Below are positions 14,594 to 49,783 of a DNA stretch of 64,000 bases, piece after piece. Below the pieces are notes generated by a model that saw only the letters and a program-made list of their open reading frames with translations, searched no databases and was not told the DNA's origin. The stretch's first letter is position 1; every line of letters starts with the position of its first letter. The translations under genes were made by a program, and so were the position numbers. Source of the stretch: an uncultured bacterium (lineage in GTDB: Bacteria; Patescibacteriota; Minisyncoccia; Phycocordibacterales; Phycocordibacteraceae); assembly GCA_937879955.1 (NCBI GenBank), contig CALFMK010000002.1, positions 1,175 to 65,174 on the forward strand, given 5' to 3'.

Positions 14594-14624
14594 CCGCGAG
14601 GGATTCCGTTTATATACGAATCGT

Positions 14625-14630: not shown

Positions 14631-14638
14631 ATCCTGCC

Positions 14639-15328: not shown

Positions 15329-15413
15329 CGTTGACTTTTCCGTACTAAGACGTATCGTGCGGGCACGTCGCGGTTTCGCGCGGCCCGTTCCTCACTCATA
15401 AGGAGATACTGCG

Positions 15414-16022: not shown

Positions 16023-16085
16023 CTCACATCAGGCAAGGCCGCTCCTCCGGGAGCGGCCTTTTCCATGCGCTATACTGGAGGGCAA

Positions 16086-18296: not shown

Positions 18297-18358
18297 CGCT
18301 TCATTGCTTCTGGACGCGCTTTGCCGTATAAGAAGGCGCAGACAGCTGGAGAGCACCC

Positions 18359-18532
18359 ATGTACAGTAAGAAGCGAGGCAAGGACTCCATGATGGTCCCG
18401 GGCTCCGATCGCTACGATCTCATGAGCGAACGGGGCGACAGCCTCACGGATTTCCGTGACCGGCAGATCCTCAATCCCCCGAAGCCCTCTCCGTTCGCGC
18501 AGAGGAATGCTGCCGATAAGGAGCAGGAATAG
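18359..18532 (+). CDS. small hypothetical protein (57 aa)
   Basis: ORF followed by the hairpin cccgcgaccactggtcgcggg; weak support. Confidence 0.25.
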   Translation: MYSKKRGKDSMMVPGSDRYDLMSERGDSLTDFRDRQILNPPKPSPFAQRNAADKEQE

Positions 18533-18638
18533 CCGCACGGAATACCCGCCCGCGACCACTGGTCGCGGGCGTTTCCTTATCCCCATGGACGCTCTGGAGG
18601 GGAGGCGTATGCTTTGGCTACCCTAACCATTCATACCT

Positions 18639-19178
18639 ATGACCGAAGACCAGCTGATCGGGAAGCGCGTGCCAGACGTGACCTTCAAGACCCGGGTGCG
18701 CGACGAAGCCGTGGGCGGGGAGAACCCGTTCCGCTGGCAGGACGTCACGAGCGACGAGCTCTTCAAGGGTAAGAAGGTGGTGCTGTTCGGCCTTCCGGGC
18801 GCGTTCACGCCGACCTGCTCCTCGACGCACGCGCCGGGCTACGAGAAGAAGTACGACGAGTTCAAGGCGCATGGCGTCGACGACGTCATCTGCCTCTCCG
18901 TGAACGACGCGTTCACGATGTACCAGTGGGGACAGAAGCTCGGCATCTCGAAGGTGCGCATGCTTCCGGACGGGAACGGCGAGTTCACCCAGAAGCTCGG
19001 CATGCTCGTGAAGAAGGAGAACCTCGGGTTCGGCAACCGCTCGTGGCGCTACTCGATCCTCGTTGAGGACGGCGTCATAACGAAGGCGTTCGTCGAGCCG
19101 GGATTCTCCGACAACTGCGAGGAGGATCCGTTCGAGGTCTCTGACGCGGACACCATGCTCGCGGCGCTCTCGGCATAA
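18639..19178 (+). CDS. peroxiredoxin (Prx5-like / AhpC-TSA family)
   Basis: [10 protein letters not shown] peroxidatic-Cys motif; 179 aa. Confidence 0.85.
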
Positions 19179-19187
19179 GCATCCCGC

Positions 19188-35423: not shown

Positions 35424-35442
35424 GACCCCGTTCCGTATCGAA

Positions 35443-35472
35443 GAAAGGCCCGCTTTCGAGCGGGCCTTTCTC
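35443..35472. terminator. bidirectional intrinsic terminator after rpoC (gaaaggcccgc-tttcg-agcgggcctttctc)
   Basis: Perfect hairpin flanked by A-run and T-run read directly. Confidence 0.6.
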
Positions 35473-35529
35473 ATGGGCATAAAAGAAACGCCGCGCCTGC
35501 CCATGGAAGGGAAGGTGCGGCGTCCTGGC

Positions 35530-35865
35530 TCAGGCGGCGACCGATACGCGGTCCGGGTCCATGAGCGACCAGTCGATGGCGCACGGCCGGTCGGTCGCGG
35601 TCCGCTCTCCGCAGAGAACCACGAAGACCGGATACAGACTCTCCACCATCCGTTCCGGACGGTGTTCCGCCGCGGATTCGAACAGCTCGGTGACGAGCGT
35701 CCGGGCCAGGACCTTCTGGGACTGGTCGCCGCGCCGGGCGTACGTTTCGAACGTCGAGCAGATCTTGTCGAGCGCGGTCTGGTTGTGCTTCGTGCCGGAC
35801 TGCTTCTGTACGACGGCCAGCGCGCTCGCACGTGCCAGGTTCTCCATGATGCTTGATGGTGTCAC
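35530..35865 (-). CDS. hypothetical protein
   Basis: ORF with RBS gggagag 6 nt before a GTG start; no recognised domain; the overlapping plus-strand ORFs are low-complexity shadows. Confidence 0.4.
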   Translation of the reverse strand: MTPSSIMENLARASALAVVQKQSGTKHNQTALDKICSTFETYARRGDQSQKVLARTLVTELFESAAEHRPERMVESLYPVFVVLCGERTATDRPCAIDWSLMDPDRVSVAA

Positions 35866-35982
35866 GATCACTCTCCCTATGAGGAACAATCAGACTATGT
35901 ATAGGACGGTATCCGGCACCCGTCAATCCTGGGGAAAGGGAAAGACCGCCGGGCACGAGGTGCCGGGCGGTCTCTTGGGCGA

Positions 35983-36366
35983 TCAGGCGGCCGCAGCCGT
36001 GGGGATGCAGTTCGTGATCTTCATGTGCTTGAACCTGACGCGGCCGAAGCTGTTCGTGCTGCCGGTCCACGGCTGGTGGTCGGTCGAGCAGTAGAGGCCG
36101 TTCGGGACGATCTCCAGGGCGTAGTGCTGTGTGATCTCGGCGATCTTCTCCCAGAGCTCGTCGCTCGGACCGATGTCCGCGCTCCAGTCCCGGAAGAAGA
36201 CGGTGTACTGCCCGTCGGGGAAGGCGGCCAGCTTCGCCTCGTGCTCACGGCCGTGGAGGACCTTGAGCAGGCCGTCCATGGTGAGGACGATGACGTCGTT
36301 CTGGTAGCCTCTGCGGTACTCCGGCGGTCTCACGATCGCTTCTTCGCGCTGCGCTTCGATGTGCAT
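35983..36366 (-). CDS. hypothetical protein (127 aa), tandem paralog of the 36484..36864 gene
   Basis: RBS aggaggg 4 nt before the ATG; shared C-terminal pattern L.P.G.Y...PWTGS; its own terminator at 35940..35975. Confidence 0.5.
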   Translation of the reverse strand: MHIEAQREEAIVRPPEYRRGYQNDVIVLTMDGLLKVLHGREHEAKLAAFPDGQYTVFFRDWSADIGPSDELWEKIAEITQHYALEIVPNGLYCSTDHQPWTGSTNSFGRVRFKHMKITNCIPTAAAA

Positions 36367-36483
36367 GGTTCCCTCCTGAGGAAAATCTGGTCTGAGAGCA
36401 CTATACAATATATAAAATATATTGCAATACCTGGCAGGGCAAAGACGAAGACCGCCGCGGCATTCTGCCGGGCGGTCTCTGTG

Positions 36484-36864
36484 CTAGGCGGCCTGCGCGT
36501 CAGCGCGCCGGCGGATCCGGATGGTGAGGATGCGGCCGGGGTCGTGGCTGCCGCCCGTCCAGGGCATGAAGCCGCATTCGCCGGGCGCGAGCACGTCCAC
36601 CACGTGCGTCTTGCCGATGTCCGTGAGGACCTGGCGCAGCGGATCGTCAGGGCCGATCATGAGCCCCTTCGGGCTGATGATGTTCACGGTGAACGGGCGG
36701 TCCGGGTCCTCGTCGAGGCGCTTGCGGTAGCTCTGCGCGGGCTTCTTCCCGGGCTCGATATAGCCGTCCTCGCTAAGGACGTCGATCACGTTCTGGGTCG
36801 TATGGGCGTTCCAGTCGTGGGTATTGCCGCGGACCGGCATGAAGCCGGCCTGGGTATCGTTCGA
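36484..36864 (-). CDS. hypothetical protein, tandem paralog of the 35983..36366 gene
   Basis: ...LAPGECGFMPWTGGSHD aligns with ...GLYCSTDHQPWTGSTNS of the neighbour; terminator agaccgcc..ggcggtct at 36446..36480; start ambiguous (GTG 36864 or ATG 36840). Confidence 0.45.
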   Translation of the reverse strand, partial: SNDTQAGFMPVRGNTHDWNAHTTQNVIDVLSEDGYIEPGKKPAQSYRKRLDEDPDRPFTVNIISPKGLMIGPDDPLRQVLTDIGKTHVVDVLAPGECGFMPWTGGSHDPGRILTIRIRRRADAQAA

Positions 36865-36973
36865 CACGTGTAATGCTCCCTCAAAGGTTCTGAACTGGGG
36901 TCTACTATGCCATATTCCGGGCCGTTCCACGACCCGAGCGCGCAAGCGCCTGAGGCGGTAAAATACGGAGGAC

Positions 36974-38686
36974 ATGGATACCGTCGAGCAGGTGAAGGCG
37001 AAGCTCTCGATCCTCGAGGTCGTTTCGCCGTACGTGAAGCTCACGAAGTCCGGCCGCAACTACAAGGGTCTCTCGCCGTTCAACAAGGAGAAGACCCCGT
37101 CCTTCTACGTGAACGTGGAGCGCGGCACGTACTACTGCTTCTCCTCGGGACAGGGCGGCGACCAGTTCGAGTTCATCCAGAAGATGGAGGGCGTGGACTT
37201 CAAGGGCGCGCTCAAGATACTCGCGGAGAAGGCGGGGGTAGAGATCGTGTACCAGGGCGGCGGCGCCTCGAAGGCGGACAAGGACAAGCGCGACCGCCTG
37301 TACGAGGCGATGGCACGCGCGGAGGCGAAGTACGCGGCAGGCCTCCTCGAGGGGAAGGACGTCGCGGGAAGCGCGTACGCGTATGCGCTCTCGCGTGGAT
37401 TGTCCGCTGAGACCATCAAGACCTGGAACCTCGGCTACGCGCCGGACGCGTGGCGCACGATCCTCGAGAGCCTGACGGCAGACGGCTTCACGAACGCGGA
37501 GCTCGTCGCGGCTGGCTTGGTTAAGGAAGCGGACGAGAAGAAGGGGACCTGGTACGACCGCTTCCGCAAGCGCCTCATGTTCCCGATACGGGACTCGGCC
37601 GGACGCACCGTAGCGTTCACGGGACGCGCGCTCGACCCTAGCGATCTCGCGAAGTACCTGAACTCCCCGGAGACCGACCTCTACAAGAAGTCGGAGATCC
37701 TCTTCGGCATGGACAAGGCGAAGGACGCGATACGCCAGCGGGGGTTCGCGCTCTTGGTTGAGGGGCAGATGGACCTCCTCATGCTGCATCAGATCGGCTT
37801 CCAGAACACCGTAGCACTCTCGGGCACGGCGCTCACCCCGCAGCACCTTTCCTTGATAAAGCGCTACGCGGACAACCTCATGCTCGCGCTCGACTCGGAC
37901 CGCGCGGGACTGAACGCCAGCATGAAGAACGCCATCGCGGCACTCAAGGCCGGCATGCACGTGAAGGCGGTGCGGCTGCCTGCAGGGAAGGACCCGGCCG
38001 ACATGGCGAACGAGGACCCGAAGGCGTTAACCGCTCGTATCAAGGGCAGCGAGCCTATCGTAGAGTTCTTCCTCTCGGTCCTGGCCGAGACGGAGAAGGA
38101 CCCACATCGATTGATCATGCTCGTGGAGAAGACCGTGCTCCCTCTGATAGCGGCCATCCAGAGCCCGATGGAGCAGGAGCACTTCGTGGGCATAACGGCG
38201 CGCTCGCTCGGCTCGACGCCTGAGGCCATCCGGGCCGCGCTCGCCCGGCTCCCGAAAGAAGGGCGCCAGCCAGAGGCGGCTAGGCCCTTCGAGCAGCCCG
38301 TACAGACCCGTCCGCAGGCTCCTGTAGCCATGTCAGCGAGCGAGCGGCACGGGATGAAGCTTCGCGCCGTGGCGGCCGCGTATGCCGATACGGCCATTGC
38401 GAGGAAGGTGGAAAATGAGTATAATCGCATCATCGGCGTACCGTTCCCGGACGTGCCCCCTCCCGAAGACATGATCTTCGAGGCAGGAATAGCCTTTGGC
38501 GAGGCCCCCGGAGAAACGGACGCGGACGATCTCATCGTCGCATTCGAGAAGGCACTCCTAGCGGAGCGGCTCCAGGCCGCTACCGCTCGCTTGCGCGTTG
38601 CAGAGACGTCCCGAGACGAGACTCAGATTAAGGAAGCAGGGCAGGAATGCGAAGAGCTCCGGAAGAGGCTCGCCCTATTTTCATAA
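36974..38686 (+). CDS. dnaG: DNA primase
   Basis: CHC2 zinc finger ([15 protein letters not shown]), Toprim domain ([14 protein letters not shown]...LDSDRAG); 570 aa. Confidence 0.9.
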
Positions 38687-38717: not shown

Positions 38718-39995
38718 ATGCCAACTGCGAAGAAGCCAGCCAAGAAGGCTGCACCGAAGAAAGTAGTGAAGAAGGCCGCTCCTAAGAAGGCGGTGAAGAA
38801 GGCTGCGCCTAAGAAGGCAGCCAAGAAGGCGCCTGCGAAGAAGGCAGCGGTTGCGAAGAAGCCGACCAAGAAGGTCGCGCTCAAGAACATCGTCCGCGCG
38901 GCAGCGACAGGCGCGAAGGCGAAGGCCGCAGCCGTGAAGGTAGACAAGGCCGACGTCCTCATCAAGAAGGGCAAGGAGCGCGGCTACATCACGTACTCGG
39001 AGATCCTCAAGGAGTTCCCGCACGTGGAGGACGACATCATGTTCCTCGACGAGCTCTACGAGAAGTTCACCGCCGCCGGCATCGACATCCTCGAGGGCGG
39101 CATGCTCGCCGATGACACGGACCAGTACCTCGCTACCCGCAACATAAAGAGCCGCGACTCAGGCGCGTACGACTCCATCCAGATCTACCTCCGCGAGATC
39201 GGCCAATACCCGCTCCTCACGGCTTCCGAAGAGCGCGAGCTCGCGCAGCGTATCGAGAAGGGGGACGACGAGGCGCGCAATATCCTCGCCCGCTCGAACC
39301 TCCGCCTCGTGGTATCGATCGCAAAGAAGTACGTAGGCCGGTCTCCTGACCTGACCCTTCTCGACCTCATCCAGGAGGGCAACCTCGGCCTCTTCAAGGC
39401 CGTCGACAAGTTCGACTGGAACAAGGGATTCAAGTTCTCGACCTATGCGACGTGGTGGATCCGCCAGGCCATCACCCGCGCGCTCGCGGACCAGTCCCGC
39501 ACCATCCGCATCCCGGTGCACATGGTGGAGACCATCGCGAAGTACAAGCAGGTGTCCCGCCGCTTGGCACAGGTGCTCGGCCGCGATCCGCAGCCTGAGG
39601 AGATCGCCATCGAGATGGGCGTCGAGGTGGACAAGATCTACCAGATCGAGAAGATCAACCAGGACACGCTCTCGCTCGAGAACCCTATAGGCTCCGATGA
39701 CGACCAGAACTCCACCCTCGGTGACTTCATCGCGGACGATAAGATCCCGTCTCCTATCCAGGAGTCCTCGGAGCGCATCCTCGGCGAGCAGGTCCGCGAC
39801 ATCCTCGAGGACCTCTCTCCGAAGGAGCGCAAGATCCTCGAGATGCGCCACGGCCTCCTCGACGGCGTGTACCACACGCTCGAGGAAGTGGGTAAGGAGT
39901 TCGGCGTCACCCGCGAGCGTATCCGCCAGATCGAGGCGAAGGCGCTGGAGAAGATCAGGACGCATGAGAAGTCCCGTCGTTTGAAGAGTTACTAA
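38718..39995 (+). CDS. rpoD: RNA polymerase sigma-70 factor with a histone-H1-like Lys/Ala-rich N-terminal repeat tract
   Basis: Regions 2-4 ([41 protein letters not shown]-terminal [23 protein letters not shown]); the N-terminus is [18 protein letters not shown]... repeats. Confidence 0.9.
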
Positions 39996-39999
39996 ACGA

Positions 40000-40027
40000 A
40001 AGACCCGCGAGAGCGGGTCTTTTGTTT
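40000..40027 (+). terminator. intrinsic terminator after rpoD (aagacccgc-gaga-gcgggtcttttgttt); also the left edge of the low-GC island
   Basis: Hairpin plus T-run read directly; base composition switches from high GC to AT-rich immediately downstream. Confidence 0.6.
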
Positions 40028-41053
40028 ATGGAACAGATAAAATTTTCCTGGATTTTTAATAAAAAATCAGTCTATTGCGATTTAAGAAACGAAGTCCATA
40101 CTTGCTTCATGAAGGAAAGGGATTCGGTTCGGCCACAGAACAATCAAGAAGGCAAATTAAAAAAGCAACAGAAAAATTCTGTTGTGAATAAGCAATCGCT
40201 GTCGCTTGTTGGAAATACCATCGATAGTATTGATGTACGATTGAGCTATAAAATTGTAGAGCTTTTTTCTGAGGGTCTGTACGCAAGTCCTAATAAGGCA
40301 GTTGAAGAGCTTGTTGCTAACTCATTTGATGCTGGTGCAAGGAAAGTCTTAGTACTTCTCTCAAAAGATCTGCATGGGCAAGATGCATCAATTGCAGTTA
40401 TTGATGATGGCGAGGGTATGAATGCAGCAGGTTTGAAGCAGCACTGGCTTATAGGGGTAAGCGGGAAACGAAAGGAGCATCCGCTACCGAATGGCAGGCA
40501 GCAAATTGGAAAATTCGGAATTGGTAAACTGGCAACCTACGTTCTTTCAAACCAACTCACACATGTAAGTAAGCGTGGAGGTAAATATTTTGCGACCTCG
40601 ATGAATTATGCAGACATTGACCAGCGAGTCGGTAAGGAAATAGAACCAAAGACTCCAATGAAGATTCCACTTCACCAGCCAACAGAAGCTGAAGTTATGG
40701 AGCTCCTAAGGCCCTGGACTGAGACTGCAGCCTTCAAAACCTCTGGTATGAAACTTTTCGGAAAAGGGTCTCCCAAGTCGTGGACAGTGACTCTCATGAG
40801 CTCTCTAAAAGACAAGGTTCATGACATTAGGCCAGGTCACCTGGAGTGGGTTCTTAGAACCGCCATGCCGCTTCGACCAGATTTTGAAGTTTGGATGAAT
40901 GATAAGAAACTAGCTCCAAGTAAACAAGGAAAGGGAGTGCTTAAGGAGTGGGTGCTTGGAAAAGATCTTATAGAGCTGCCAAAGCCAGCGTCAAAGGAAA
41001 TTGAGATATCAGAGGATAAGAGCGTAGATAGTGCTGATCCTAAACGTTTCTGA
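40028..41053 (+). CDS. GHKL (Bergerat-fold, MORC/MutL/Hsp90-like) ATPase N-terminal part; ends at a TGA that is in frame with the next ORF
   Basis: N-box ELVANSFDAGARKVLVLL; Gly-rich G1/G2 region IDDGEGMNAAGLKQHWLIGVSGK...GKFGIGKLATYV; low GC; start uncertain (ATG 40028 or 40109). Confidence 0.6.
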   Translation: MEQIKFSWIFNKKSVYCDLRNEVHTCFMKERDSVRPQNNQEGKLKKQQKNSVVNKQSLSLVGNTIDSIDVRLSYKIVELFSEGLYASPNKAVEELVANSFDAGARKVLVLLSKDLHGQDASIAVIDDGEGMNAAGLKQHWLIGVSGKRKEHPLPNGRQQIGKFGIGKLATYVLSNQLTHVSKRGGKYFATSMNYADIDQRVGKEIEPKTPMKIPLHQPTEAEVMELLRPWTETAAFKTSGMKLFGKGSPKSWTVTLMSSLKDKVHDIRPGHLEWVLRTAMPLRPDFEVWMNDKKLAPSKQGKGVLKEWVLGKDLIELPKPASKEIEISEDKSVDSADPKRF

Positions 41054-41107
41054 CTGTTAACACCCCAGCTTGGGCGTATTACGGGATATGTTGAGGCTTA
41101 CAAGGAT

Positions 41108-42730
41108 TTGCTGACCGGAAAATCTGACGAAATAGGAAGGAGCTACGGCTTCTTCGTATATGTATTTGATCGTCTCGTTAATGTCGAGGATGGTCACTTT
41201 GGAATCTCACCTGATGAACTTCGGCATGGAACCTTTGGTCGCTTCAGGGCGGTGGTCCACATGAACGGTCTTGATAGGCTTTTAAGGGCAAACCGTGAAG
41301 CACTTATGGAAGGACCGGAACTTGAAGAGGCAAGAAATATCTTGCGAGGCATCTTTAACTCCGTTCGTTCTACAATTGAGAGTCAGGTAAGTCTCGAAGA
41401 ACCTGGAGCACAACTCGCCCGAAAGCTTGCTGCAAGCCCCGGAAGCTTGTCTCGATCACCAATCGTCGAGCTGGCACGTGCTGTGGTGGAGAAGCGTAGT
41501 AATGCACATTATCTTTCCGTACCTGATTTAAAGAACGATTCTGAACGAGAAGCTTTTATAAGCGAGCTTGAATCTCGCGCTGCGGATCCAGAAAAATTCG
41601 TTTCTGGACTCACTCTCGATTACAACGGTAGTCCCGATGAAGGTTTTGCAAAATATGATACCCAAACGGCAAACCTACGTATAAACGCCTGGCATCCACT
41701 TGTCGCAACTTTCCACGACGAATTCTCAAGTAAAACGAGCGGACAGCCTCTCGAGGTCTTGGCAATGGCCGAAGTACTTGCTGAGTCGCATCTGCACGCA
41801 CTCGGGGTTCCTGGAACTACAATTAGTGACTTTCTCGCAACACGCGATAGGCTGCTCCGGTATCTTGCAAATGAATCCGGACATCAAAGTGCATTTTCTG
41901 TTGCAGCCTCATTAAAAGAAGCAAGAAATAATCCTGACTCTTTAGAAGATAAGGTATGCGCTGCTTTCTCAAGTCTTGGATTTGAAACCATCCCTATTGG
42001 AGGTAAGGGTAAGCCGGACGGGGTTGCAACAGCACATCTTTCCGCGGGTGAAGACGGACAGTCTCGTCGTTACTCCGTGAGTCTTGAAGCAAAAAGTAAA
42101 GAGAAGGATGGAGTCAGGGTCGCCAATGCTAGTGTACGAGTGTCGGCAATTGCGCGCCAGCGCGATGAGTATGCCTGTAACCACGCAATTATCGTCGGTC
42201 CGTCCTTCTCAACGACAGCGGGCGAGAGCTCAGCACTCGCAAAAGAGATTAGCGCTGACCGAGAAGGTACGGAGGCAAGGGGTAATCGGAAGACCATTAC
42301 GCTTATAACAGTCGATGATTTGGCACGGCTCGTAACACTCCGTCCCCTTAAACAGCTCGGTCTTTCTGAGATCCGGAGCCTTTTTGAGTGTAGGTTACCC
42401 GAGGAAAGCAGGGAATGGGTAGATGGTATCCAGGCAAAGATTGTCGAAAAGCCACCGTACAAAGAGATCATTGGAGCTATTCACAAGCTCCAGAAAGACT
42501 TTAATCAAGCAAGTGTTAAATATTCGGCATTGCGCGTAGAGCTCTCGCATCTCTTACCGCCCATTAAATTTGATAGAGATGATGAACTTATCGAGCTCTG
42601 TAATGCGCTGGCGCAAATGTCATCAGGAGCCATGCATGCCAATACTGGAACAGTTGAGCTCGATCAGAGTAGGGAAAATGTAATTACCGCTATCGAAGCT
42701 GCGATGAGGGAGTATAATGGCCAGAGTTAA
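41108..42730 (+). CDS. continuation/partner of the GHKL ATPase (540 aa) with a C-terminal PD-(D/E)xK-like nuclease motif
   Basis: Same reading frame as 40028..41053 across the single stop; the 18 codons after the TGA are open (LLTPQLGRITGYVEAYKDLLTGK...); near the C-terminus GGKGKPDGVA ...~20 aa... YSVSLEAKSK fits D...E.K; no ATG until residue ~52. Confidence 0.5.
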   Translation: MLTGKSDEIGRSYGFFVYVFDRLVNVEDGHFGISPDELRHGTFGRFRAVVHMNGLDRLLRANREALMEGPELEEARNILRGIFNSVRSTIESQVSLEEPGAQLARKLAASPGSLSRSPIVELARAVVEKRSNAHYLSVPDLKNDSEREAFISELESRAADPEKFVSGLTLDYNGSPDEGFAKYDTQTANLRINAWHPLVATFHDEFSSKTSGQPLEVLAMAEVLAESHLHALGVPGTTISDFLATRDRLLRYLANESGHQSAFSVAASLKEARNNPDSLEDKVCAAFSSLGFETIPIGGKGKPDGVATAHLSAGEDGQSRRYSVSLEAKSKEKDGVRVANASVRVSAIARQRDEYACNHAIIVGPSFSTTAGESSALAKEISADREGTEARGNRKTITLITVDDLARLVTLRPLKQLGLSEIRSLFECRLPEESREWVDGIQAKIVEKPPYKEIIGAIHKLQKDFNQASVKYSALRVELSHLLPPIKFDRDDELIELCNALAQMSSGAMHANTGTVELDQSRENVITAIEAAMREYNGQS

Positions 42731-42732
42731 TT

Positions 42733-43992
42733 ATGCCGGCAAAAGCAAGTACAACACAGAAGAAGGGTAAGACAATGTACGATGCACTGGGACGTGACTC
42801 AGTGCACCCCTTTCCGGCCCGAATGGCCCCGACAATCGCGCTCGAAGTACTAGAGAACTCAAAGAGACCTCTCAGGATCCTCGACCCAATGATGGGTTCT
42901 GGGACAGTCATCGCTCTTGCGCGAGCGAATGGACATCAAGCAAGAGGAATTGATATAGATCCTCTGGCGGTGCTACTTTCGAAGGTATGGACGACTGCGG
43001 TTGATATTGAACACATAAATACCGTAGCTAAGAATGTTCTGGCCATAGCAGAAAAAAGTTTCCCTAATATGCCCCTGGAGAAGGCGTATCCAATAGAATC
43101 TGATGATGAGACGAAAGAGTTCATTGACTATTGGTTTGATCCCATTGTCCGTAGGCAAATGACTTCTCTTTCAAACGCGATCCTAGCCGTTGAGGATGAG
43201 GACGAGCGAGATGTACTTTGGTGTGCGCTTTCTCGCTTAATTATCGTGAAGAGCTCAGGCGTATCACTCGCGATGGATCTATCACATAGTCGTCCGCATA
43301 GAGTCTACGAAGAAGCTCCAGTAAGGCCGTTTGATAAATTTCTACCCATGGTTCTGAAGGTGACAAAGAGTTGTCTTGATAAGAAAGACAAGGCTCGCGG
43401 ACCTGTAGCGAAGGTTGCAAGGGGTGATGCTCGAAAACTCCCGATTAGAAAATCTTCGATAGATATCGTGCTTACTTCTCCTCCCTATCTTAATGCTATT
43501 GATTACATGCGTTGTAGTAAATTTTCATTGGTGTGGATGGGGTATAAAATTGGTGAACTAAGAAAGCTCCGTACCGATAGTATTGGTAGTGAATTAAGCA
43601 GTGGTATTGCTAACGAAGATGAGAGTGTGAAGCTTGTAGTAAAGGGATTAAATCTACAGCCTCGACTGACAACACGGAATCAGGCCATACTTTCTCGATA
43701 TATATATGATATGACCTCTTCAATAAAAGAGGTTGCAAGAGTATTAGTCCCAAATGGAAAGGCAATTTATGTGGTCGGTGAAAATACGATCAAGGGAACC
43801 TATATAAGGAATTCTGTTGTAATGGAAATTGTTGCAAAGCAAGTAGGGCTAGCGCTGACAGAAAAAAAAGTTCGAATTTTACCTGCCAATCGTCGTTATC
43901 TTCCGCCTCCAACAAAAAGATCAAGCAAGGCTTCGATGGATGCGCGTATGCGGAGAGAAGTTGTAATGACCTTCACGAAACTGGCGATTTAA
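42733..43992 (+). CDS. SAM-dependent amino (N6-adenine or N4-cytosine) DNA methyltransferase
   Basis: Motif I DPMMGSGTV near the N-terminus; motif IV VLTSPPYLNAIDY about 200 aa downstream; ATG 2 nt after the upstream stop. Confidence 0.8.
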   Translation: MPAKASTTQKKGKTMYDALGRDSVHPFPARMAPTIALEVLENSKRPLRILDPMMGSGTVIALARANGHQARGIDIDPLAVLLSKVWTTAVDIEHINTVAKNVLAIAEKSFPNMPLEKAYPIESDDETKEFIDYWFDPIVRRQMTSLSNAILAVEDEDERDVLWCALSRLIIVKSSGVSLAMDLSHSRPHRVYEEAPVRPFDKFLPMVLKVTKSCLDKKDKARGPVAKVARGDARKLPIRKSSIDIVLTSPPYLNAIDYMRCSKFSLVWMGYKIGELRKLRTDSIGSELSSGIANEDESVKLVVKGLNLQPRLTTRNQAILSRYIYDMTSSIKEVARVLVPNGKAIYVVGENTIKGTYIRNSVVMEIVAKQVGLALTEKKVRILPANRRYLPPPTKRSSKASMDARMRREVVMTFTKLAI

Positions 43993-44050
43993 TATTAGTG
44001 AACTTGTCAAATTCTGTGCCAGGATTATCTATCTGATAAGATATTTATGA

Positions 44051-44398
44051 ATGGCCGATATAGAAAAACTCAAGGAAATGGTGGTCCAATTCCGAGACGA
44101 TCGGGACTGGAAGCAATTTCATACTCCTAAAGACCTGGCCATTTCCATGGCTCTCGAGGCTGGGGAAGTCCTTGAGCATTTCCAGTGGAAAGACGAAAGG
44201 GCCCAATGGGCACATGGTGAGGCCAAAAGGGAGGATATTGGCGACGAGCTCGCCGACGTTCTGTATTGGGTTCTTCTCCTAAGTAACGATCTGAATATTG
44301 ATATTTCAGAGGCTTTTGTTCGCAAGCTCGAAAAGAATAACGAGAAGTATCCCGTAGAAAAGGCGAAGGGAAGAAACGCGAAGTACACAGAACTCTAG
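44051..44398 (+). CDS. MazG-like nucleoside triphosphate pyrophosphohydrolase (all-alpha NTP-PPase)
   Basis: WKQFHTPKDLAISMALEAGEVLEHFQWK...IGDELADVLYWVLLLSNDLNIDISEAF matches the MazG/HisE-type EExxE/D motifs; 115 aa. Confidence 0.75.
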   Translation: MADIEKLKEMVVQFRDDRDWKQFHTPKDLAISMALEAGEVLEHFQWKDERAQWAHGEAKREDIGDELADVLYWVLLLSNDLNIDISEAFVRKLEKNNEKYPVEKAKGRNAKYTEL

Positions 44399-44400
44399 CC

Positions 44401-45966
44401 ATGTCCGAGATCGAAAGCTTTGAATTTAAGAGAAGCGAATCGGATAAAATTCGAAAATATAAATTCGGAAGCAATTGGCCCGTTGTGTATCTTCTCGAAG
44501 ACGGGAAAGAGCTCTATGTGGGGCAGACCACTCGTGCCTTTGTGCGCAGCAAGCAGCATCTCGATACCCCGTCCCGGGCAAAGCTAAAGAAGATGCATAT
44601 AATCAGTGACGAGGAATTTAATATCTCAGCTGCTCTCGATATCGAATCCTGGCTCATTCAGTACCTTTCAGCGGAAGGTACGTTTCAGCTACAGAACTCC
44701 AATAAGGGTCTGAGGAATCATGAGTACTTTGATCGTGAGAAGTACAAGGCGAAGTTCGAGCTTATTTGGGAGAAGCTCAGGGCAATGTCGCTTGCTACCC
44801 AGGACCTCGTACAGCTCAGGAATAGTGACGTATTCAAATACTCTCCCTATAAGTCTCTTAGTGACGATCAGCTGATCATTGCCACTGATCTCTTTAAGAA
44901 GATCGCGAAGAACGAACAGAAAACGTATCTCATTAATGGAAAGCCAGGAACCGGAAAAACCGTCTTGGCAATCTATTTGATGAAGTACCTTGCGCAGGAG
45001 AAGGAGACACGGCATTTGAAGATTGCTCTTGTGGTGCCCATGACCTCGCTGCGGCAGACTATACGGAACGTCTTCAGGAAAATCCCTGGTCTCAAGACCA
45101 CTCAGGTTATCGGTCCTGCTGACGTAACGAGAGGAGACTACGATCTACTTATTGTGGACGAGGCCCATAGGCTCAAACAGCGCGTAAACATAGCCAATTA
45201 CCAGTCTTTTGATGTGGTTAACAAAAGGCTCGGTTTTGGTAACGAAGGCACCGAACTCGACTGGATACTCGCTTCTTCAAAACAGCAGATACTCTTTTAC
45301 GACAGGAACCAGAGTGTACGCCCATCCGATGTTTCCGAGCAACGATTCTCTCAACTGAAGGCTGATTTCTATAACCTAGCCAGCCAGCTGAGAGTGGAGG
45401 GAGGAGAGGAATATCTTGAATATGTAGACGGTGTTCTCAGCCTCAGAAATACCTCCTATGTACCTCAGGACTATGACTTCGCTATCTATGAGGACATTCG
45501 GGAGATGATCTCTGATATCAAGAAAAGAGACGCTGAGACTGGTCTGGCTCGTGTAGTGGCAGGATATGCCTGGGACTGGAAGACAAAGAACGGGGGAGAG
45601 GAATATGATATCGAGATCGATGGTCTAAGGCTGATCTGGAACTCAACAACGAGTGATTGGGTTAATTCCAAGAACGCTGTTAATGAAATAGGTTGTATCC
45701 ATACTATCCAGGGCTATGACCTCAATTATGCTGGCGTTATTATCGGACCTGAGATCTCATATGATCCCGAGCAGCACCGTATCGTTGTTGATCCAAAGAA
45801 GTATAAGGACATAAACGGAAAGCGATCCGTTGAGAATCCTGAAGAACTTGAGCGATATGTCATTAATATCTACAAGACCCTTCTCACGCGTGGGATTAAG
45901 GGAACCTACGTATATATCGCAGATGAAGAGCTGAGGAAGCTTTTTCGAAAGAATCTAATCGCTTAA
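44401..45966 (+). CDS. GIY-YIG nuclease domain fused to a DUF2075-type P-loop ATPase/helicase-like domain
   Basis: N-terminal VVYLLEDGKELYVGQTTRAFVRSKQH (GIY...YIG...R...H); Walker A GKPGTGKTV; Walker B DEAH-like LLIVDEAHRL; ATG 3 nt after the MazG stop. Confidence 0.75.
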   Translation: MSEIESFEFKRSESDKIRKYKFGSNWPVVYLLEDGKELYVGQTTRAFVRSKQHLDTPSRAKLKKMHIISDEEFNISAALDIESWLIQYLSAEGTFQLQNSNKGLRNHEYFDREKYKAKFELIWEKLRAMSLATQDLVQLRNSDVFKYSPYKSLSDDQLIIATDLFKKIAKNEQKTYLINGKPGTGKTVLAIYLMKYLAQEKETRHLKIALVVPMTSLRQTIRNVFRKIPGLKTTQVIGPADVTRGDYDLLIVDEAHRLKQRVNIANYQSFDVVNKRLGFGNEGTELDWILASSKQQILFYDRNQSVRPSDVSEQRFSQLKADFYNLASQLRVEGGEEYLEYVDGVLSLRNTSYVPQDYDFAIYEDIREMISDIKKRDAETGLARVVAGYAWDWKTKNGGEEYDIEIDGLRLIWNSTTSDWVNSKNAVNEIGCIHTIQGYDLNYAGVIIGPEISYDPEQHRIVVDPKKYKDINGKRSVENPEELERYVINIYKTLLTRGIKGTYVYIADEELRKLFRKNLIA

Positions 45967-46040
45967 TTGGGAGCTTTCAGACTTTATCAAAAATTTATCT
46001 AGATTTGATATCCTCCTGTCTTAGGCTAATACAATCAACC

Positions 46041-46673
46041 ATGAATAAGACGGTACTTATAGCGATTGCAGCCTTCCTCATTCTTGTCGGTGGCATGTAT
46101 TACTTCACCCGCTCGTCGGAGGAATCAGCTACCGTGGTAGATACTTCAGGTTGGAATACCTATACAAATACTACCTATTCATATTCGCTTTCATACCCTG
46201 ATGGCCTCAGACTGGGATACCCGGGTATGGCTGAAACGGTGCGGATCGAGGAGACTGACGATCTTATGATTGATGCTGATCTTAAGCCAGCCATCTTTGG
46301 TGTGACAGCATATACCGTTGATACAGCACATGACTCTCCGGCCATTAAGGAGCGAAACAGTTTGGCCACTCTACCACTTAAAGAGTTTGCTGAAGGTGTC
46401 CGACAGCTGCAGGTAAATGACTCAAATTCTTCAATCCAAGATAAAACGGTTGGAGAGTTACAGGAAATTACGTTTGCAGGAAAGCCGGCCTATTCCTTCA
46501 CTCTAAACAAAGCGTTTGTCTCAGATTCACTTGGTAGTGGCTATATTCTCACACCAGAAGATACGAACTTTAATTTCATCTTCGTTGAGAATAAGTTCGG
46601 CCAGAAACTTATGGTTCGGTATCTTGTGAACGATACCGCTGCAGAAGGTATAAAGAATTCATTCAAGCTCTAG
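46041..46673 (+). CDS. hypothetical secreted/anchored protein (low GC)
   Basis: N-terminal TM/signal MNKTVLIAIAAFLILVGGMYYF; no recognised domain; followed by a bidirectional hairpin at ~46690..46725. Confidence 0.5.
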   Translation: MNKTVLIAIAAFLILVGGMYYFTRSSEESATVVDTSGWNTYTNTTYSYSLSYPDGLRLGYPGMAETVRIEETDDLMIDADLKPAIFGVTAYTVDTAHDSPAIKERNSLATLPLKEFAEGVRQLQVNDSNSSIQDKTVGELQEITFAGKPAYSFTLNKAFVSDSLGSGYILTPEDTNFNFIFVENKFGQKLMVRYLVNDTAAEGIKNSFKL

Positions 46674-46751
46674 CGCTGCATTATAATTAATAAAAAGCCC
46701 CCGGCTCTCGAAAGAGAGTCGGGGGTAGTTCGTTAAGAGCTTAGCTCTTGG

Positions 46752-47450
46752 TTATTGGCAGGTGGCTGCGGGGTAATGCATGTTACTGCCGGAATGAAGC
46801 GGGTCTGGAATCAAAGCATACTGGTACCAGTACTCCGTTGCCTGACTCTCAGATCCAGCAAACGGATCACGGCTTGTACCGCTGGCCGACATCGAGCTAC
46901 GTAGCTCGAAGTGTAGGTGAGGTCCGGTGACACTCCCGCTCCTGCCCGAGAGACCGACCAGTGTTCCGCCAGGGCCGCTCACGCAGGTGATCGATTGTCC
47001 GTTGGTGACGTTGACCGAGCTCAGGTGCGCATAGAGCGTGTACCAGCCATCAGCATGCTGAATCCAGACGTGGTTGCCCAGGTTGCTGCCGCAGGACGGA
47101 TTGCCGGTCGCTGGACAGCCTGTCGTTACGGAAGCAACCGTTCCGCTCGCTGCCGCATAGACCGACGTACCAGATGATACGCCAAAGTCCGTTCCTCGAT
47201 GCCTCGGGTTGTTGCCGTAATAGTACGGCGAGGTGGACGGTATGACCGTGGCATCGTAACGAATGTTGGTGTTGGTCGCGTAGGGTGTATGCCAGTGGTC
47301 CATCCATGCCGTAATGCTATACGGCACGTAGGCAAGCGGGAGCCTGTACTTTGTTTGCGCTTGAGCTGCGCTCCCGTTCAAGAACGTGAGAAAAAGCGCG
47401 ACCGCCGCACATAGAGTGGCCAGCAGTCCCTGATTCCTGTAGCTTCTCAT
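46752..47450 (-). CDS. secreted M23 (LytM-type) metallopeptidase
   Basis: Signal peptide; HRGTDFG...GNHVWIQHADGWYTLYAHLS...GLSGRSGSVTGPHLHFEL contains the HxxxD and HxH zinc-ligand motifs. Confidence 0.8.
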   Translation of the reverse strand: MRSYRNQGLLATLCAAVALFLTFLNGSAAQAQTKYRLPLAYVPYSITAWMDHWHTPYATNTNIRYDATVIPSTSPYYYGNNPRHRGTDFGVSSGTSVYAAASGTVASVTTGCPATGNPSCGSNLGNHVWIQHADGWYTLYAHLSSVNVTNGQSITCVSGPGGTLVGLSGRSGSVTGPHLHFELRSSMSASGTSRDPFAGSESQATEYWYQYALIPDPLHSGSNMHYPAATCQ

Positions 47451-47591
47451 CTATACTCTCCAAATATGTAGGTTTGAGGTTGTGTAGATACATAGACTGC
47501 ACTACGGACCCATGCAAGCCCCCTTTGAAAGAACAAAGTTCGCACTATTTGCGAATACCTGACTCGAAATAGTCAGGTGCAGCATCCTACC

Positions 47592-48053
47592 TTACGAAGA
47601 TAAAGAGAAAATAAAGTCGAAATGCTCTGAAGAAACCGGTGTCACTGAAAGCCTCGAACCCGGTTGCAGAATCATCATCTTCCCAAGATGAGAATCTGCC
47701 CTGATGTCAGTCAGCGTAACCGGCACCTCGAGCTTCCGAACGAACGCGATATCAACCAAGTCCCAGATAGGCTTCGCTTCAGTGGCGCGCGGATCATAAT
47801 AGCTGCTCTTCGGGTCGAACTGGGTCGGGTCAGGATAGGGCAGGGAGACAACCTCGGCGATGCCGTAGACGCCTGGCACCTTACAGTTCGAATGATAGAA
47901 GAGCACATGGTCTCCGGGCTTCATCTCGCGCATATAGTTCCGGGCCTGAAAGTTCCGGACTCCGGTCCAAGCAGTCTTCCCGTCCTTCTTGAGATGGTCG
48001 ATTCCGTAGCTCTCGGGCTCGGATTTCATGAGCCAATATCGCTTTTCAGACAT
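47592..48053 (-). CDS. EVE (PUA-like) domain protein
   Basis: YWLMKSEPESYGIDHL...WTGVRNFQARNYMREMKPGDHVLFYHSN is the EVE/Thump-like PUA signature; start at MSEKRYW, the ORF-track N-terminal extension is unlikely. Confidence 0.75.
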   Translation of the reverse strand: MSEKRYWLMKSEPESYGIDHLKKDGKTAWTGVRNFQARNYMREMKPGDHVLFYHSNCKVPGVYGIAEVVSLPYPDPTQFDPKSSYYDPRATEAKPIWDLVDIAFVRKLEVPVTLTDIRADSHLGKMMILQPGSRLSVTPVSSEHFDFIFSLSS

Positions 48054-48111
48054 TGTTTCCAGTATATATAAAATCCAGTTTTTCTTTATATTCCTGAGAT
48101 ACATTGCAGCA

Positions 48112-48531
48112 ATGAATACTGCAAAAAAGGAAAGGGACTTCAGAAAGCGTGTCACAAGACGTCTGAAAAGGAGTGACCCTGTTCGGTGGGAAGGTCTTTC
48201 TGAGGAAGAACGGTTGAGTGCCGTAGAGGTCTATGCAGATCTTGTGGACCCAAAGAATTTGGATCCCTTGTCCCTTATCAATGAGACATGGAATCGTGCC
48301 GATGCAGTAGACAATCTAATGATGGGTGTGCTGCTCGGGCTTTTCGGAACTGCTGCAGGCAATGTCATTGAAAATTACCTTGCTCCCGCCGGGATAGTGT
48401 ATGAATTCTTCGCGGTAACATTCTTCCTTGGTATTTTCTTTATCTTCAACTGGATACCGGGAGAGATTCTCAATCGAAGCTATAAGGAAGGTCGCTTGCT
48501 CGAGAAGCTCTTAAGGGAGAAGAAATCGTAA
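48112..48531 (+). CDS. hypothetical membrane protein (low GC)
   Basis: Two C-terminal hydrophobic segments; divergent from the EVE gene across an AT-rich 58-bp gap. Confidence 0.4.
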   Translation: MNTAKKERDFRKRVTRRLKRSDPVRWEGLSEEERLSAVEVYADLVDPKNLDPLSLINETWNRADAVDNLMMGVLLGLFGTAAGNVIENYLAPAGIVYEFFAVTFFLGIFFIFNWIPGEILNRSYKEGRLLEKLLREKKS

Positions 48532-48835
48532 ATCGTATAAGAAAACCGGCCGCCCCAAAGGAGCGGCCGATGTACTAACACAAACGCTTACGCTTCCATG
48601 TCGAAGCGGAGCCTCTCTTCGGAAGCCGCTCTCGCCGAGGACCCGGGGTCCAAGCAGGCCGGTGCTCCTTCACGATGCGAGGCGCCGTAATCGCTGTCGT
48701 AGCCAGAAGGCTCGTGAATACGAGCCCGATGATCAATCTCATATTGGTCCCTCCGATTTCCTCGTACAGACTGCCTCTCGCGAGCCTCCTCGTCAACAAA
48801 GAAAGAGGCCGCTCCAGAGGAGCGGCCTCGGCCTT

Positions 48836-49126
48836 TCAGTGCACCGTCGCGAACGTATACAGATAGAAGCAGGTGCCGATTGCCGGTAGGGCGAGCAGAG
48901 GCAGCGCATCGAGATTCTTGAGACTGCCTTCGACGTGGGTGCGCGGACAGCTCCATTCCTCGCGGTTGCTCACGAGCGGCCCGATCTTCGCCTCGATGAA
49001 CACGGGCCTGCCGAGCTCCTTCTCCATGGCTTCACGAACCTGGTCGATGGAAAGGTTCGCGGGGTAGTGGCCGAGCCGGAGCTCGAATTCCACTTTGGTA
49101 TCGATAGGTGCTCCTTCGAAAGCCAT
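48836..49126 (-). CDS. hypothetical small protein (96 aa)
   Basis: RBS ggaga 7 nt before the ATG; it is the C-terminal part of a longer shadow ORF; no recognised domain. Confidence 0.4.
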   Translation of the reverse strand: MAFEGAPIDTKVEFELRLGHYPANLSIDQVREAMEKELGRPVFIEAKIGPLVSNREEWSCPRTHVEGSLKNLDALPLLALPAIGTCFYLYTFATVH

Positions 49127-49213
49127 CCTCGGTTCTCCTATGTGCTGGAGGCTGCTCTGCCTAGGGTTGTACCTCCCCGGGAAGGAAGCGTCAAACGTAG
49201 GTATAGTGGGAGG

Positions 49214-49783
49214 ATGACCGTGCCGTACGAGATACGCGAATCCACCCGCGCCAAGCGCCTCGGCCTCACGGTGCACCCGGACGGGCGGGTAACCGTCACG
49301 AAGCCCGTACGGACTCCGCTGAAGAAGGCGGAGCAGTTTGCCGCCAAGCACGAGGACTGGATCCTGGCGGCCCAGGAATCCTTCCGGAGGAGGGCAGAGA
49401 AGCGGAAGAAGGCCGGCATAGAGCAGGTGCAGCTCCCGCGCCCACGGAAGGGATCGAACGCGTACAAGGAGGCCAGAGAGGCCGCCCGAGCGCTCGTATC
49501 GGAGCGCCTCGCATATTTCAATCAGCTCTACGGCTTCCGGTACGGATCCATATCCATACGGGACCAGAAGACCCGATGGGGAAGCTGCTCGGCTGCCGGG
49601 AACCTCTCCTTCAACTATCGTCTCGCATACCTGCCCGAGCGGCTCCAGGACTACGTCGTGGTGCACGAGCTCTGCCACGTGAAGGAGCACAACCATTCCC
49701 CGAGGTTCTGGGACCAGATGACGCGAGCGCTGCCGGACCATGTCGCTCTCCGGAAGGAGCTCCGTACCCGCTACGCGGCCTGA
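49214..49783 (+). CDS. YgjP/DUF45-family zinc metallohydrolase (WLM/SprT-like HExxH)
   Basis: YVVVHELCHVKEHNHSPRFWDQM motif near the C-terminus; 190 aa; the ORF-track upstream extension is not supported. Confidence 0.7.
   Translation: MTVPYEIRESTRAKRLGLTVHPDGRVTVTKPVRTPLKKAEQFAAKHEDWILAAQESFRRRAEKRKKAGIEQVQLPRPRKGSNAYKEAREAARALVSERLAYFNQLYGFRYGSISIRDQKTRWGSCSAAGNLSFNYRLAYLPERLQDYVVVHELCHVKEHNHSPRFWDQMTRALPDHVALRKELRTRYAA

Follow-up and report, generated by a model that had tools for sequence, protein, structure and literature searches.

An in-frame TGA codon at a conserved glycine position in the ATPase-nuclease gene of a putative restriction-modification module

The locus downstream of rpoD

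The window, by which is meant the whole stretch of 64,000 nucleotides analysed here, belongs to a metagenome-assembled genome of a member of the Paceibacterota (CPR) with 64% GC, whose RpoC groups with those of Paceibacterota/Parcubacteria. Between the rpoD terminator and an EVE gene lies a variable segment of 7.6 kb (40023..47619) with a GC content of 42-50% versus about 64% in the host, in agreement with the low-GC island of a preliminary description made from the sequence. Within the segment, GC3 was 0.39-0.54 in the + strand genes and 0.66 in an M23 peptidase gene, versus 0.84-0.93 in host genes. Also located in the segment are a MazG-like gene (44051-44398), an SLFN-g3/DUF2075 helicase gene (44401-45966) and a 222-aa ORF. 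A related contig (L065) is syntenic to the window up to position 40022 and again from 47620, and harbours an HTH gene and a type I hsdMSR system in between. The segment is a recent acquisition in a variable defence slot downstream of rpoD. The two relatives, with about 90% nucleotide identity, hold wholly different restriction-modification (R-M) cargo in this slot.

On the + strand, positions 40109..42730 form a single frame of 873 codons whose sole interruption is a TGA at 41051..41053, in the context ...CGT TTC TGA CTG TTA..., with C as the next base. The flanking ORFs had been described as sharing one frame and being split by this TGA alone, and this was confirmed: ORFs 40022/40028/40109..41053 and 41108..42730 are in a common frame, whose 903 codons contain no other stop. 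The publicly annotated start is the ATG at 40109, not 40028, and the public annotation consists of two CDSs with products of 314 aa (P0128) and 489 aa (P0248, from ATG 41261), both listed under NCBI, ENA and Logan. The 18 codons leading from the TGA to a TTG at 41108 read LLTPQLGRITGYVEAYKD and align with some of the most conserved residues of the family; across 23 homologues ten of these residues do not vary (P, G, R, G, Y, E, A, Y, K and D), which bears out the earlier impression of a continuing polypeptide. The first in-frame ATG 3′ of the stop is that at 41261, 51 codons past TTG 41108. Upstream of this TTG an AAGGA ends 1 nt before and a GAGG lies at 11 nt, so that by eye no well-spaced Shine-Dalgarno sequence is present, nor is one seen ahead of ATG 41261. 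A promoter-like site was looked for ahead of both codons and none was found. The downstream ORF was thus rightly described as having no ATG for about 50 codons and no convincing RBS.

Homologues and fold matches indicate that the whole conceptual gene (40109..42730, +) encodes a GHKL ATPase, a middle, transducer-like domain, a helical region, a PD-ExK nuclease and a winged-helix C-terminus. The N-terminal fragment of 314 aa up to the stop (40109..41053, +) has a Bergerat ATP-binding fold and matches Pfam HATPase_c_3 above the gathering score (E 1.8e-21). The ExxxNxxD, DxGxG and GxxGxG signatures of the GHKL (Bergerat-fold) superfamily are all found, in motif I EELVANSFDAG (40304-40336, +), motif II IDDGEGM (40400-40420, +) and motif III GKFGIGKLA (40508-40534, +), and these motifs are invariant across the family. 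Foldseek matched this part to HSP90 (NTD-MD), MORC2 and GyrB (GyrB43) with low TM-scores, and a PDB sequence search returned weak HSP90 N-domain matches only. After the TGA, the annotated "intergenic gap" (41054..41260, +) is really coding sequence, in which the middle domain is at its most conserved and has invariant columns; it contains the conserved middle-domain stretch GRITGYVEAYKD (41072-41107, +) and LLTGKS (41108-41125, +), a candidate phosphate-sensing lysine loop. The remainder of the gene, corresponding to the 489-aa product (41261..42730, +), comprises the helical region, the nuclease with its core sequences KPDGVA (42011-42028, +) and SLEAKSK (42080-42100, +) and the winged-helix-like end, and stops at a TAA; the C-terminal part displays fold matches to HindIII, FokI and BspD6I. 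A structural model of one homologue (P0001) has a beta-rich middle domain at residues about 235-360, with a pLDDT of 31-46 over residues 311-350, and the glycine equivalent to the TGA position, Gly290, sits in a beta-strand (289-293) within a block of pLDDT 80-87. The middle region had no match to an S5-type domain in Pfam. Judged from the model, the stop falls within the folded middle domain and parts the GHKL fold from the LTGKS loop and the nuclease.

The gene that follows encodes an intact DNA amino-methyltransferase (MTase) of 419 aa (42733..43992, +; PADLOC MTase_II, E 2.8e-33), starts 2 nt past the stop of the nuclease gene and contains both motif I DPMMGSGT (42883-42906, +) and motif IV TSPPY (43474-43488, +). 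An MTase homologue is found directly downstream (within 400 nt) of the ATPase gene in 58 of 64 genome loci, and the nuclease and MTase genes thus share a conserved operon, as in an R-M system. By this gene order the ATPase-nuclease and the amino-MTase would constitute a conserved, mobile two-gene module, R-M type II-like and predicted to be ATP-dependent, and ATP-controlled cleavage is the predicted native mechanism.

Homologues and the glycine column

The conceptual fusion of the two ORFs matched more than 120 proteins with E=0 and 96-100% coverage of both halves. These homologues are 845-918 aa long and 61-68% identical to the fusion, and the earlier characterisation as a MORC-sized ATPase-nuclease of about 900 aa is a fair one, the nuclease being backed by fold comparison. 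Among 64 genome loci, 51 have the gene as an uninterrupted single ORF, and these come from many phyla. None of the 64 has a gene boundary at the TGA site, and no homologue starting near 41108 was found among the proteins and genome loci. Aligned to full-length homologues in this way, the two ORFs are contiguous and are halves of one gene, with a continuity far beyond chance; its predicted product is a restriction-type enzyme of about 850-870 aa. The public two-CDS annotation with a 207-nt gap is wrong, and one pseudogene should stand there.

The residue at the TGA position is glycine in 120 of the 120 best protein homologues and in 57 of the 64 genome loci, with GGA as the codon in 12 of 64. 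The closest relatives, two CPR genomes (L002 and L003; Paceibacterota, Kaiserbacteria), have GGC/GGG at the site and no in-frame TGA in the aligned gene. A TGA at this position is absent from all 64 loci and all 120 proteins. Since the TGA is aligned with an invariant glycine that is encoded by GGA in 12 of the loci, one G>T change (GGA>TGA) explains the stop. GGA is the commonest glycine codon of the ATPase-nuclease gene (27/63) and makes up 36% of all its codons one step from TGA; by chance, 36% of the nonsense changes to TGA would be expected to fall on glycine. No relative of the gene with more than 70% identity was present in the searched collections, and none above 77% in the genome collection, so the ancestral codon is deduced from homologues and not directly seen. 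A 26-mer spanning the stop, its mutated base replaced by N, had no exact match in JGI metagenome contigs, and no contig encoding exactly the MTase, the helicase or the 314-aa product was found.

The interruption is most probably a recent nonsense mutation (GGA>TGA) that struck the restriction gene of a putative paraMORC-type R-M module and left the MTase intact. This was the first of the explanations in the preliminary description, and it is supported by the single-ORF family, the invariant glycine reachable through GGA>TGA, the intact MTase and the conservation of both halves. No further decay is seen in the interrupted gene, in which 235 of the 238 columns of at least 97% conservation are kept. 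The ratio of C-half to N-half identity is 0.974 versus 0.952 ± 0.022 in intact homologues; with the nearest homologue at just 68% identity, such a comparison of divergence before and after the stop lacks the power to date the mutation. A very recent mutation would account for the total lack of decay 3′ of the stop, and an error or ongoing selection via readthrough would do so equally well.

A sequencing or assembly artefact, or a polymorphism within the population, is unlikely; the gene would then be intact, with GGA at 41051-41053 in reality or in most of the population. The source is a 65.5-kb metagenome-assembled contig and the downstream half retains its conserved columns as in an intact gene, but a consensus assembly seldom contains substitution errors. 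The 314-aa and 489-aa products also recur identically under the three public sources, although this weighs little since these may go back to the same reads or the same record. In 11 of the 64 loci the ATPase-nuclease gene is broken, at varied places and in other ways; the family is thus often truly disrupted, which gives a prior in favour of a true mutation over a base-call error.

Decoding of TGA and alternative readings

Decidedly unlikely is a UGA that is decoded as sense at useful frequency, either by near-cognate readthrough at UGA-C or as UGA=Gly in the manner of code 25, yielding full-length enzyme at a reduced level. Among CPR bacteria, the related Gracilibacteria and Absconditabacteria use UGA=Gly; the host is one of the Patescibacteria, and the stop lies on an invariant glycine column, is followed by C and has no decay downstream of it. 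Host reassignment was first suspected because the long genes end in TAA or TAG despite 64% GC: rpoB, rpoC, dnaG and rpoD all end in TAA, other long host genes in TAA or TAG, and TGA is the stop of only about 10 of 37 host ORFs. Host genes including rpoD, rnhB and rpoB had earlier been said to use TGA/TAA as true stops; rpoB and rpoD end in TAA, not TGA, but for the approximately ten TGA-ended ORFs the statement holds, as these stops are genuine. The TGA at 16020-16022 is followed by a GC hairpin and T-run and then by an SMC gene that starts at profile position 1; in a YgjP-like gene the terminal TGA coincides with profile position 206/207; and the orthologues at 35530-35889(-) of the window and 8118-8462(-) of the related contig L065 have their TGA stop at the same residue. 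GC3 collapses at host TGA stops, being 0.81-0.96 ahead of them and 0.40-0.72 over the next 40 codons. No in-frame TGA occurred in the long host genes covered (rpoB, rpoC, dnaG, rpoD, a UvrD-like helicase gene and others; roughly 10,000 codons). The host uses TGA as a true stop, and on these observations a reassignment of UGA in it was rejected.

The segment itself likewise speaks against sense decoding. The TGA at 41051 is one among 127 Gly-type codons of the segment's + strand genes, which has a probability of P<=2e-5 at 10% TGA usage and 0.011 at 5%; the TGA is absent from the homologues, and a glycine site is expected by chance at the 36% given above. A tRNA scan of the 64-kb window found no tRNA, and by its RpoC the host groups away from the code-25 classes. 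A still less probable variant has the UGA acting as a throttle, in which low but useful decoding, by a code-25-like tRNA that inserts Gly or by near-cognate readthrough, would keep a newly acquired, potentially toxic ATP-dependent nuclease far below the level of the methylase. The exact fall of the stop on a glycine invariant in 120/120 homologues and the lack of downstream decay are compatible with such a throttle. Programmed readthrough or recoding, as suggested previously, did not find support: the stop is not conserved in orthologues (64 loci and 120 proteins), no signal accompanies it, the host has verified TGA stops, and the RNA after the stop had a fold z of -0.30 and no match in an Rfam search. 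In E. coli, UGA followed by C is reportedly the weakest termination context (Poole, Brown and Tate 1995), and some full-length protein could be made by leakage at UGA-C.

It is very improbable that the locus is a functional two-gene split, in which the 314-aa ATPase fragment would assemble with a C-terminal protein made from TTG 41108 or ATG 41261. The public annotation has two CDSs and TTG 41108 is in frame, but no homologue is so organised and the break would cut through a beta-strand inside a folded domain. Translation from TTG 41108 would lack the invariant GRITGYxEAYKD, and translation from ATG 41261 would lack 70 residues including LTGKS and DGHFGISPDELRHGTFGRFR; neither start is preceded by a well-spaced Shine-Dalgarno sequence or promoter-like site. 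Restart at either codon was rejected because of the conserved residues lost and the missing ribosome-binding site, and the genuine two-gene split considered in the preliminary description is refuted, the homologues being single ORFs.

Extremely improbable is that the segment came from a donor in which UGA is a sense codon, as in code 4 or code 25, the TGA being a relic of the donor code. The low GC of the segment, the CPR origin of the closest homologues and the match of a glycine position to code 25 would suit such a donor, but there is one TGA in 873 codons and no further in-frame TGA in the MTase, MazG-like, helicase and 222-aa genes, and the chance of at most one among 64 Gly codons is 0.0096 at 10% usage. 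Such a donor with UGA as sense, proposed earlier, was rejected on these binomial grounds and by the GGC/GGG codons of the closest relatives, whose aligned gene is free of in-frame TGA. The probability of selenocysteine insertion is negligible: UGA is the Sec codon, but the aligned residue is glycine and never cysteine, and the downstream RNA had no hairpin beyond chance and no SECIS or other Rfam match, by which this reading is effectively refuted.

The inactivated restriction gene and its relatives

Under the nonsense mutation preferred here, the module would have been acquired recently in the low-GC segment downstream of rpoD, and a single G>T would have turned a conserved glycine codon (GGA) into TGA. 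As the host reads TGA as a stop, translation would end after 314 residues, leaving a product that would keep the ATP-binding fold and would lack the nuclease and the rest of the middle domain, with its invariant LTGKS loop. The conserved residues so lost are not recovered by any usable restart, and the restriction component is therefore most likely inactive. The restriction component would thus be lost and the methyltransferase kept, a course toward an orphan methylase. Inactivation of a restriction gene by point mutation beside an intact methylase is a general phenomenon and the origin of orphan methyltransferases, and an R-M system usually begins its way to an orphan methylase by losing the R gene while the methylase is kept. 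With its premature stop, intact M gene and recent acquisition, the present case differs in nothing essential from other point-mutated R genes beside intact M genes, and belongs to this category.

The family resembles paraMORC3, which comprises a GHKL domain, a middle domain and a C-terminal PD-(D/E)xK (E-D-ExK) nuclease, with a predicted R-M role together with methylases and a sporadic distribution across distant phyla that suggests lateral mobility (Iyer, Abhiman and Aravind 2008, PMC2292703). Judged from the published description, the likeness extends to the GHKL and middle domains, the C-terminal restriction-endonuclease fold and the sporadic spread, and the window gene has the extra C-terminal restriction-endonuclease-fold domain with E-D-ExK motifs by which paraMORC3 is recognised. 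Many nuclease-bearing paraMORC3 genes stand alone with no conserved neighbours (PMC2292703), whereas the family described here is linked to the amino-MTase in 58/64 loci. At the position of the S5-fold middle domain of MORC/paraMORC proteins, which carries a conserved phosphate-contacting lysine, the family has a beta-rich domain whose putative S5 fold is only moderately modelled and in which LTGKS is the candidate lysine loop.

A single polypeptide with an N-terminal GHKL ATPase and a C-terminal PD-(D/E)xK nuclease is also found in VcSduA (Shedu type I-D, Vibrio cholerae), which has GHKL motifs I-IV and requires both activities for anti-phage defence (PMC12137116). VcSduA acts alone, whereas the family here has a cognate MTase and a nuclease nearest to the HindIII/FokI fold. 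DUF4263, the hallmark domain of Shedu, had no match in the C-terminal part of the window protein (E<=0.01) or in 32 members of the family (E<=0.1), and the PADLOC Shedu models did not match the window protein. The N-terminal GHKL/HATPase_c_3 domain is shared with the type II restriction enzymes of the BbrUII/HgiDII family (NF050001), and of the NCBIfam models this one matched the N-terminal fragment best (E 3.8e-19). Membership was rejected at 68.7 bits versus a cut-off of 550, with only profile positions 11-149 of 659 matching, and the C-terminal 560 residues gave no match to this profile. The catalytic domains of FokI, HindIII and BspD6I match the nuclease in fold at 12-19% sequence identity, but these enzymes are without a GHKL ATPase and are not ATP-dependent.

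The best reading of the locus is an ordinary, recently inactivated gene and not a recoding event: it would be a textbook knockout of a restriction gene by one base change with a surviving methylase, and has little importance as a recoding candidate. The finding flags a mis-annotation, as the 314-aa and 489-aa "proteins" stand in public records with a false 207-nt gap, and it points to a slot for defence-gene exchange downstream of rpoD in ultra-small CPR bacteria. The module of a GHKL ATPase-HindIII/FokI-like nuclease and an amino-MTase is widespread and uncharacterised, in at least 64 species-level genomes of more than 10 phyla. It may be regarded as an R-M-linked counterpart both of the predicted paraMORC3 proteins and of the recently validated GHKL-Shedu protein VcSduA, which sets a precedent, by experiment, for a nuclease under ATPase control.

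Reading frame and homologues of the interrupted gene

Translation of 40022..42730 gave 903 codons with the TGA at 41051..41053 (context …CCT AAA CGT TTC TGA CTG TTA ACA…) as the sole stop inside, and the ORF 41108..42730 is in the same frame as the ORF ending at 41053, which bore out the interrupted frame of the preliminary description. The 18 codons from the TGA to the mechanical TTG 'start' at 41108 encode LLTPQLGRITGYVEAYKD and match, in the homologue alignment, the block in which the family is most conserved, with P, G, R, G, Y, E, A, Y, K and D invariant. The low-GC island described earlier was also recovered, at 42–50% GC around the gene versus approximately 64% elsewhere in the window. 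The public annotation of the contig holds a 314 aa N-terminal CDS from ATG 40109 (P0128) and a 489 aa C-terminal CDS from ATG 41261 (P0248), with the 207 nt between them (41054–41260), which are conserved coding sequence, left unannotated. The two should be annotated as one pseudogene.

A search of 5.8 billion proteins with both halves joined, and an X at the stop, returned more than 120 matches with E = 0 (845–918 aa, 61–68% identity) that covered 96–100% of the fusion, the two halves being contiguous. A genome scan with one genome per species found 63 loci, or 64 with L001, the locus of the closest homologue P0001, in Planctomycetota, Acidobacteriota, Proteobacteria, Chloroflexota, Verrucomicrobiota, CPR and others. 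The gene is an uninterrupted single ORF in 51 of the 64 and cut by contig ends in two. The remaining 11 (L014, L022, L028, L042, L045, L046, L053, L058, L061, L063 and L064) are broken by frameshifts, stops or, in L045, an insertion of about 1.1 kb, at differing positions other than that of the window's TGA. Several of these are long-read MAGs, and some breaks may be assembly errors; these aside, the disruptions suggest that the nuclease gene is often lost.

Explanations of the TGA

The residue at the TGA column, raised as a check in the preliminary description, is Gly in 120/120 of the best protein homologues and in 57 of the 64 genome loci, the other seven having Ala, Ser or Arg. The Gly codon is GGA in 12 loci. 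L002 (Paceibacterota) has GGC and L003 (Kaiserbacteria) GGG; these two CPR loci are the nearest genome relatives. Among the gene's Gly codons GGA is the most frequent (27/63), and one G>T transversion converts it to TGA. As it makes up 36% of the gene's sense codons one step from TGA, a nonsense mutation on Gly is no notable coincidence.

The equivalent residue in P0001, Gly290, lies in a beta-strand (289–293) of the middle domain and not in a linker, in a block with pLDDT 80–87. Truncation leaves 314 aa, which retain the ATP-binding fold and have lost both the nuclease and the invariant block GRITGYxEAYKDLLTGKS…DGHFGISPDELRHGTFGRFR. Restart at TTG 41108 was rejected, as invariant residues would be missing and, in agreement with the weak downstream start described earlier, no well-spaced Shine-Dalgarno precedes it (read by eye, AAGGA ends 1 nt before and GAGG is 11 nt upstream). 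Restart at the next in-frame ATG, 41261, would leave the product short of 70 residues. Since no promoter-like (or terminator-like) site was found between the halves either, loss of the restriction component's function is likely.

Among columns at least 97% conserved, 235/238 are retained in the window copy, and its C-half/N-half identity ratio of 0.974 falls inside the spread seen among intact homologues (0.952 ± 0.022), so the lesion is recent, or not real. A strain polymorphism or consensus error would fit these data as well as a recent fixed mutation does, but is less favoured, because the disruption of 11/64 family loci sets the priors towards a true mutation. Among the four explanations proposed at the outset, the best supported, with good confidence, is that the restriction component recently suffered a nonsense mutation and the methylase stayed intact: the family is single-ORF, the column is Gly, TGA is one step from GGA, and the methyltransferase is present with both its motifs. 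Each of the other three is either refuted or without support.

In E. coli, termination is weakest at UGA-C, and as the base after this UGA is C, unprogrammed leakage is possible. Programmed readthrough or recoding is without support because the stop is conserved nowhere; the 91 nt around and after it have no more stable a fold than shuffled sequences (z = −0.30), and an Rfam scan of 39900–49000 returned nothing relevant. Selenocysteine was rejected on the same fold and Rfam results and on an aligned residue that is never Cys. A donor reading UGA as sense is unsupported, as a UGA = Gly donor with 10% usage would be expected to leave more than one TGA (P of at most one among 64 Gly codons = 0.0096; P = 2e-5 for all 127 Gly-type codons of the segment's + strand genes), and the CPR relatives carry GGC and GGG. 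A genuine two-gene split is refuted, since the homologues are not consistently two genes but single ORFs, and none of the 64 loci has a gene boundary at the TGA position.

Reading of TGA in the host

Two points called for caution here. The host RpoC shares 91–95% identity with proteins that carry the label Patescibacteria or Candidatus Paceibacterota, and two other classes of this phylum read UGA as Gly. The genes rpoB, rpoC, dnaG and rpoD end in TAA, and other long window genes in TAA or TAG. Window ORFs with host-like GC by codon position, counted systematically, end in TAA (n = 14), TAG (n = 13) or TGA (n = 10). The TGA share is unusually low for a genome at 64% GC whose GC3 is near 0.9. 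Past the host TGA stops, GC3 drops from 0.81–0.96 to 0.40–0.72. The TGA at 16020–16022 is followed by GGCCGCTCC-tccg-GGAGCGGCC-TTTTCC (16023–16064), which has the shape of an intrinsic terminator and separates a 202-aa ORF with no Pfam matches from an SMC gene starting at ATG 16065, which aligns to its Pfam profile from position 1 onwards. The YgjP-like gene 48935..49783 terminates on TGA at profile position 206/207, and …VS(V/A)AA-TGA is the shared end of the ORF 35530..35889(−) and of its orthologue in L065, a related contig. With these cases, no in-frame TGA in the long host genes examined and no tRNA genes encoded in the window, we conclude that the host uses the standard code with TGA as a functional stop. 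Of the genes named in the earlier statement that neighbouring host genes use TGA/TAA as true stops, rpoB and rpoD end in TAA and not in TGA; TGA is nevertheless the stop of ten host ORFs.

The restriction-modification module and its genomic slot

The N-terminus matches HATPase_c_3 (Pfam, E 1.8e-21) with GHKL motifs I–III intact, and in profile searches is weakly similar to BbrUII/HgiDII restriction enzymes, MutL, HSP90 and MzaB; membership of the BbrUII/HgiDII family was rejected (score 68.7 bits, cut-off 550). Pfam, NCBIfam and PADLOC gave no match for the C-terminal 558 residues. An AlphaFold2 model of P0001 made with 32 homologues (mean pLDDT 71, pTM 0.48, C-terminal half mostly 80–90) gave Foldseek matches to HSP90 NTD-MD, MORC2, GyrB43, FokI, HindIII and BspD6I, and places the conserved P611-D612 and E634-x-K636 on predicted beta-strands as in PD-(D/E)xK nucleases. 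The corresponding motifs in the window are KPDGVA (42011–42028) and SLEAKSK (42080–42100), and 8/32 family members have weak Mrr_cat matches over this region.

The predicted architecture of GHKL, middle domain and RE-fold nuclease corresponds to that described as paraMORC3 by Iyer et al., who predicted a role in R-M systems (PMC2292703), and is comparable to VcSduA of V. cholerae, in which phage defence was shown to need both ATPase and nuclease (PMC12137116). Unlike in VcSduA (Shedu), DUF4263 was not detected in the window protein or family members. Unlike both, the nuclease is nearest HindIII and FokI, and the gene is almost always coupled to a methyltransferase, a homologue of which lies within 400 nt downstream of it in 58/64 loci; in the window this is a 419 aa amino-methyltransferase with DPMMGSGT and TSPPY motifs. 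The pair is best described as a putative mobile, ATP-dependent R-M-like system, in which the GHKL module, by analogy with other GHKL machines and VcSduA, probably serves to gate or position the nuclease. In L001 the pair has as neighbours an HTH gene and a large serine recombinase of 598 aa (5916–7712), which fits carriage on an integrative mobile element; the segment in the window showed no recombinase.

In L065, RpoC is 95% identical and rpoB, rpoC, dnaG and rpoD show about 86–92% nucleotide identity to the window. Collinearity ends at 40022, just past the rpoD terminator hairpin (40002–40019), and is back only at 47620–48092 in the EVE gene, L065 holding an HTH gene and type I hsdM-hsdS-hsdR in its slot (13184–19903). 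Given this gap and the different cargo, 40023–47619 is an allele of a defence slot whose content varies, bounded by the rpoD terminator and the EVE gene. This allele carries the GHKL-nuclease/MTase pair, a MazG-like gene, a DUF2075/SLFN-g3 helicase, a 222-aa ORF and an M23 peptidase. GC3 of the slot's + strand genes (0.39–0.54, versus 0.84–0.93 in host genes) points to recent acquisition. The EVE gene of L065 is split into 85-aa and 62-aa pieces. At 44051–45966 the MazG-like pyrophosphatase gene (115 aa) is followed after 2 nt by the SLFN-group-3/DUF2075 helicase (521 aa), which has weak PADLOC matches to Nhi and AbiO; the two are possibly a second, separate two-gene defence module. The rpoC-dnaG interval contains tandem small paralogous ORFs (107–190 aa, no Pfam) at 35441–37059 (−), in L065 at 8118–9895 and in L066 at 502–4207, most with a C-terminal ...PWTG... 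motif, and the L066 copies appear inverted, palindromic in arrangement.

The interruption itself is an ordinary phenomenon. The residual value is in the correction of the annotation, in the CPR defence slot and in an uncharacterised family of GHKL-HindIII/FokI-like R-M systems.
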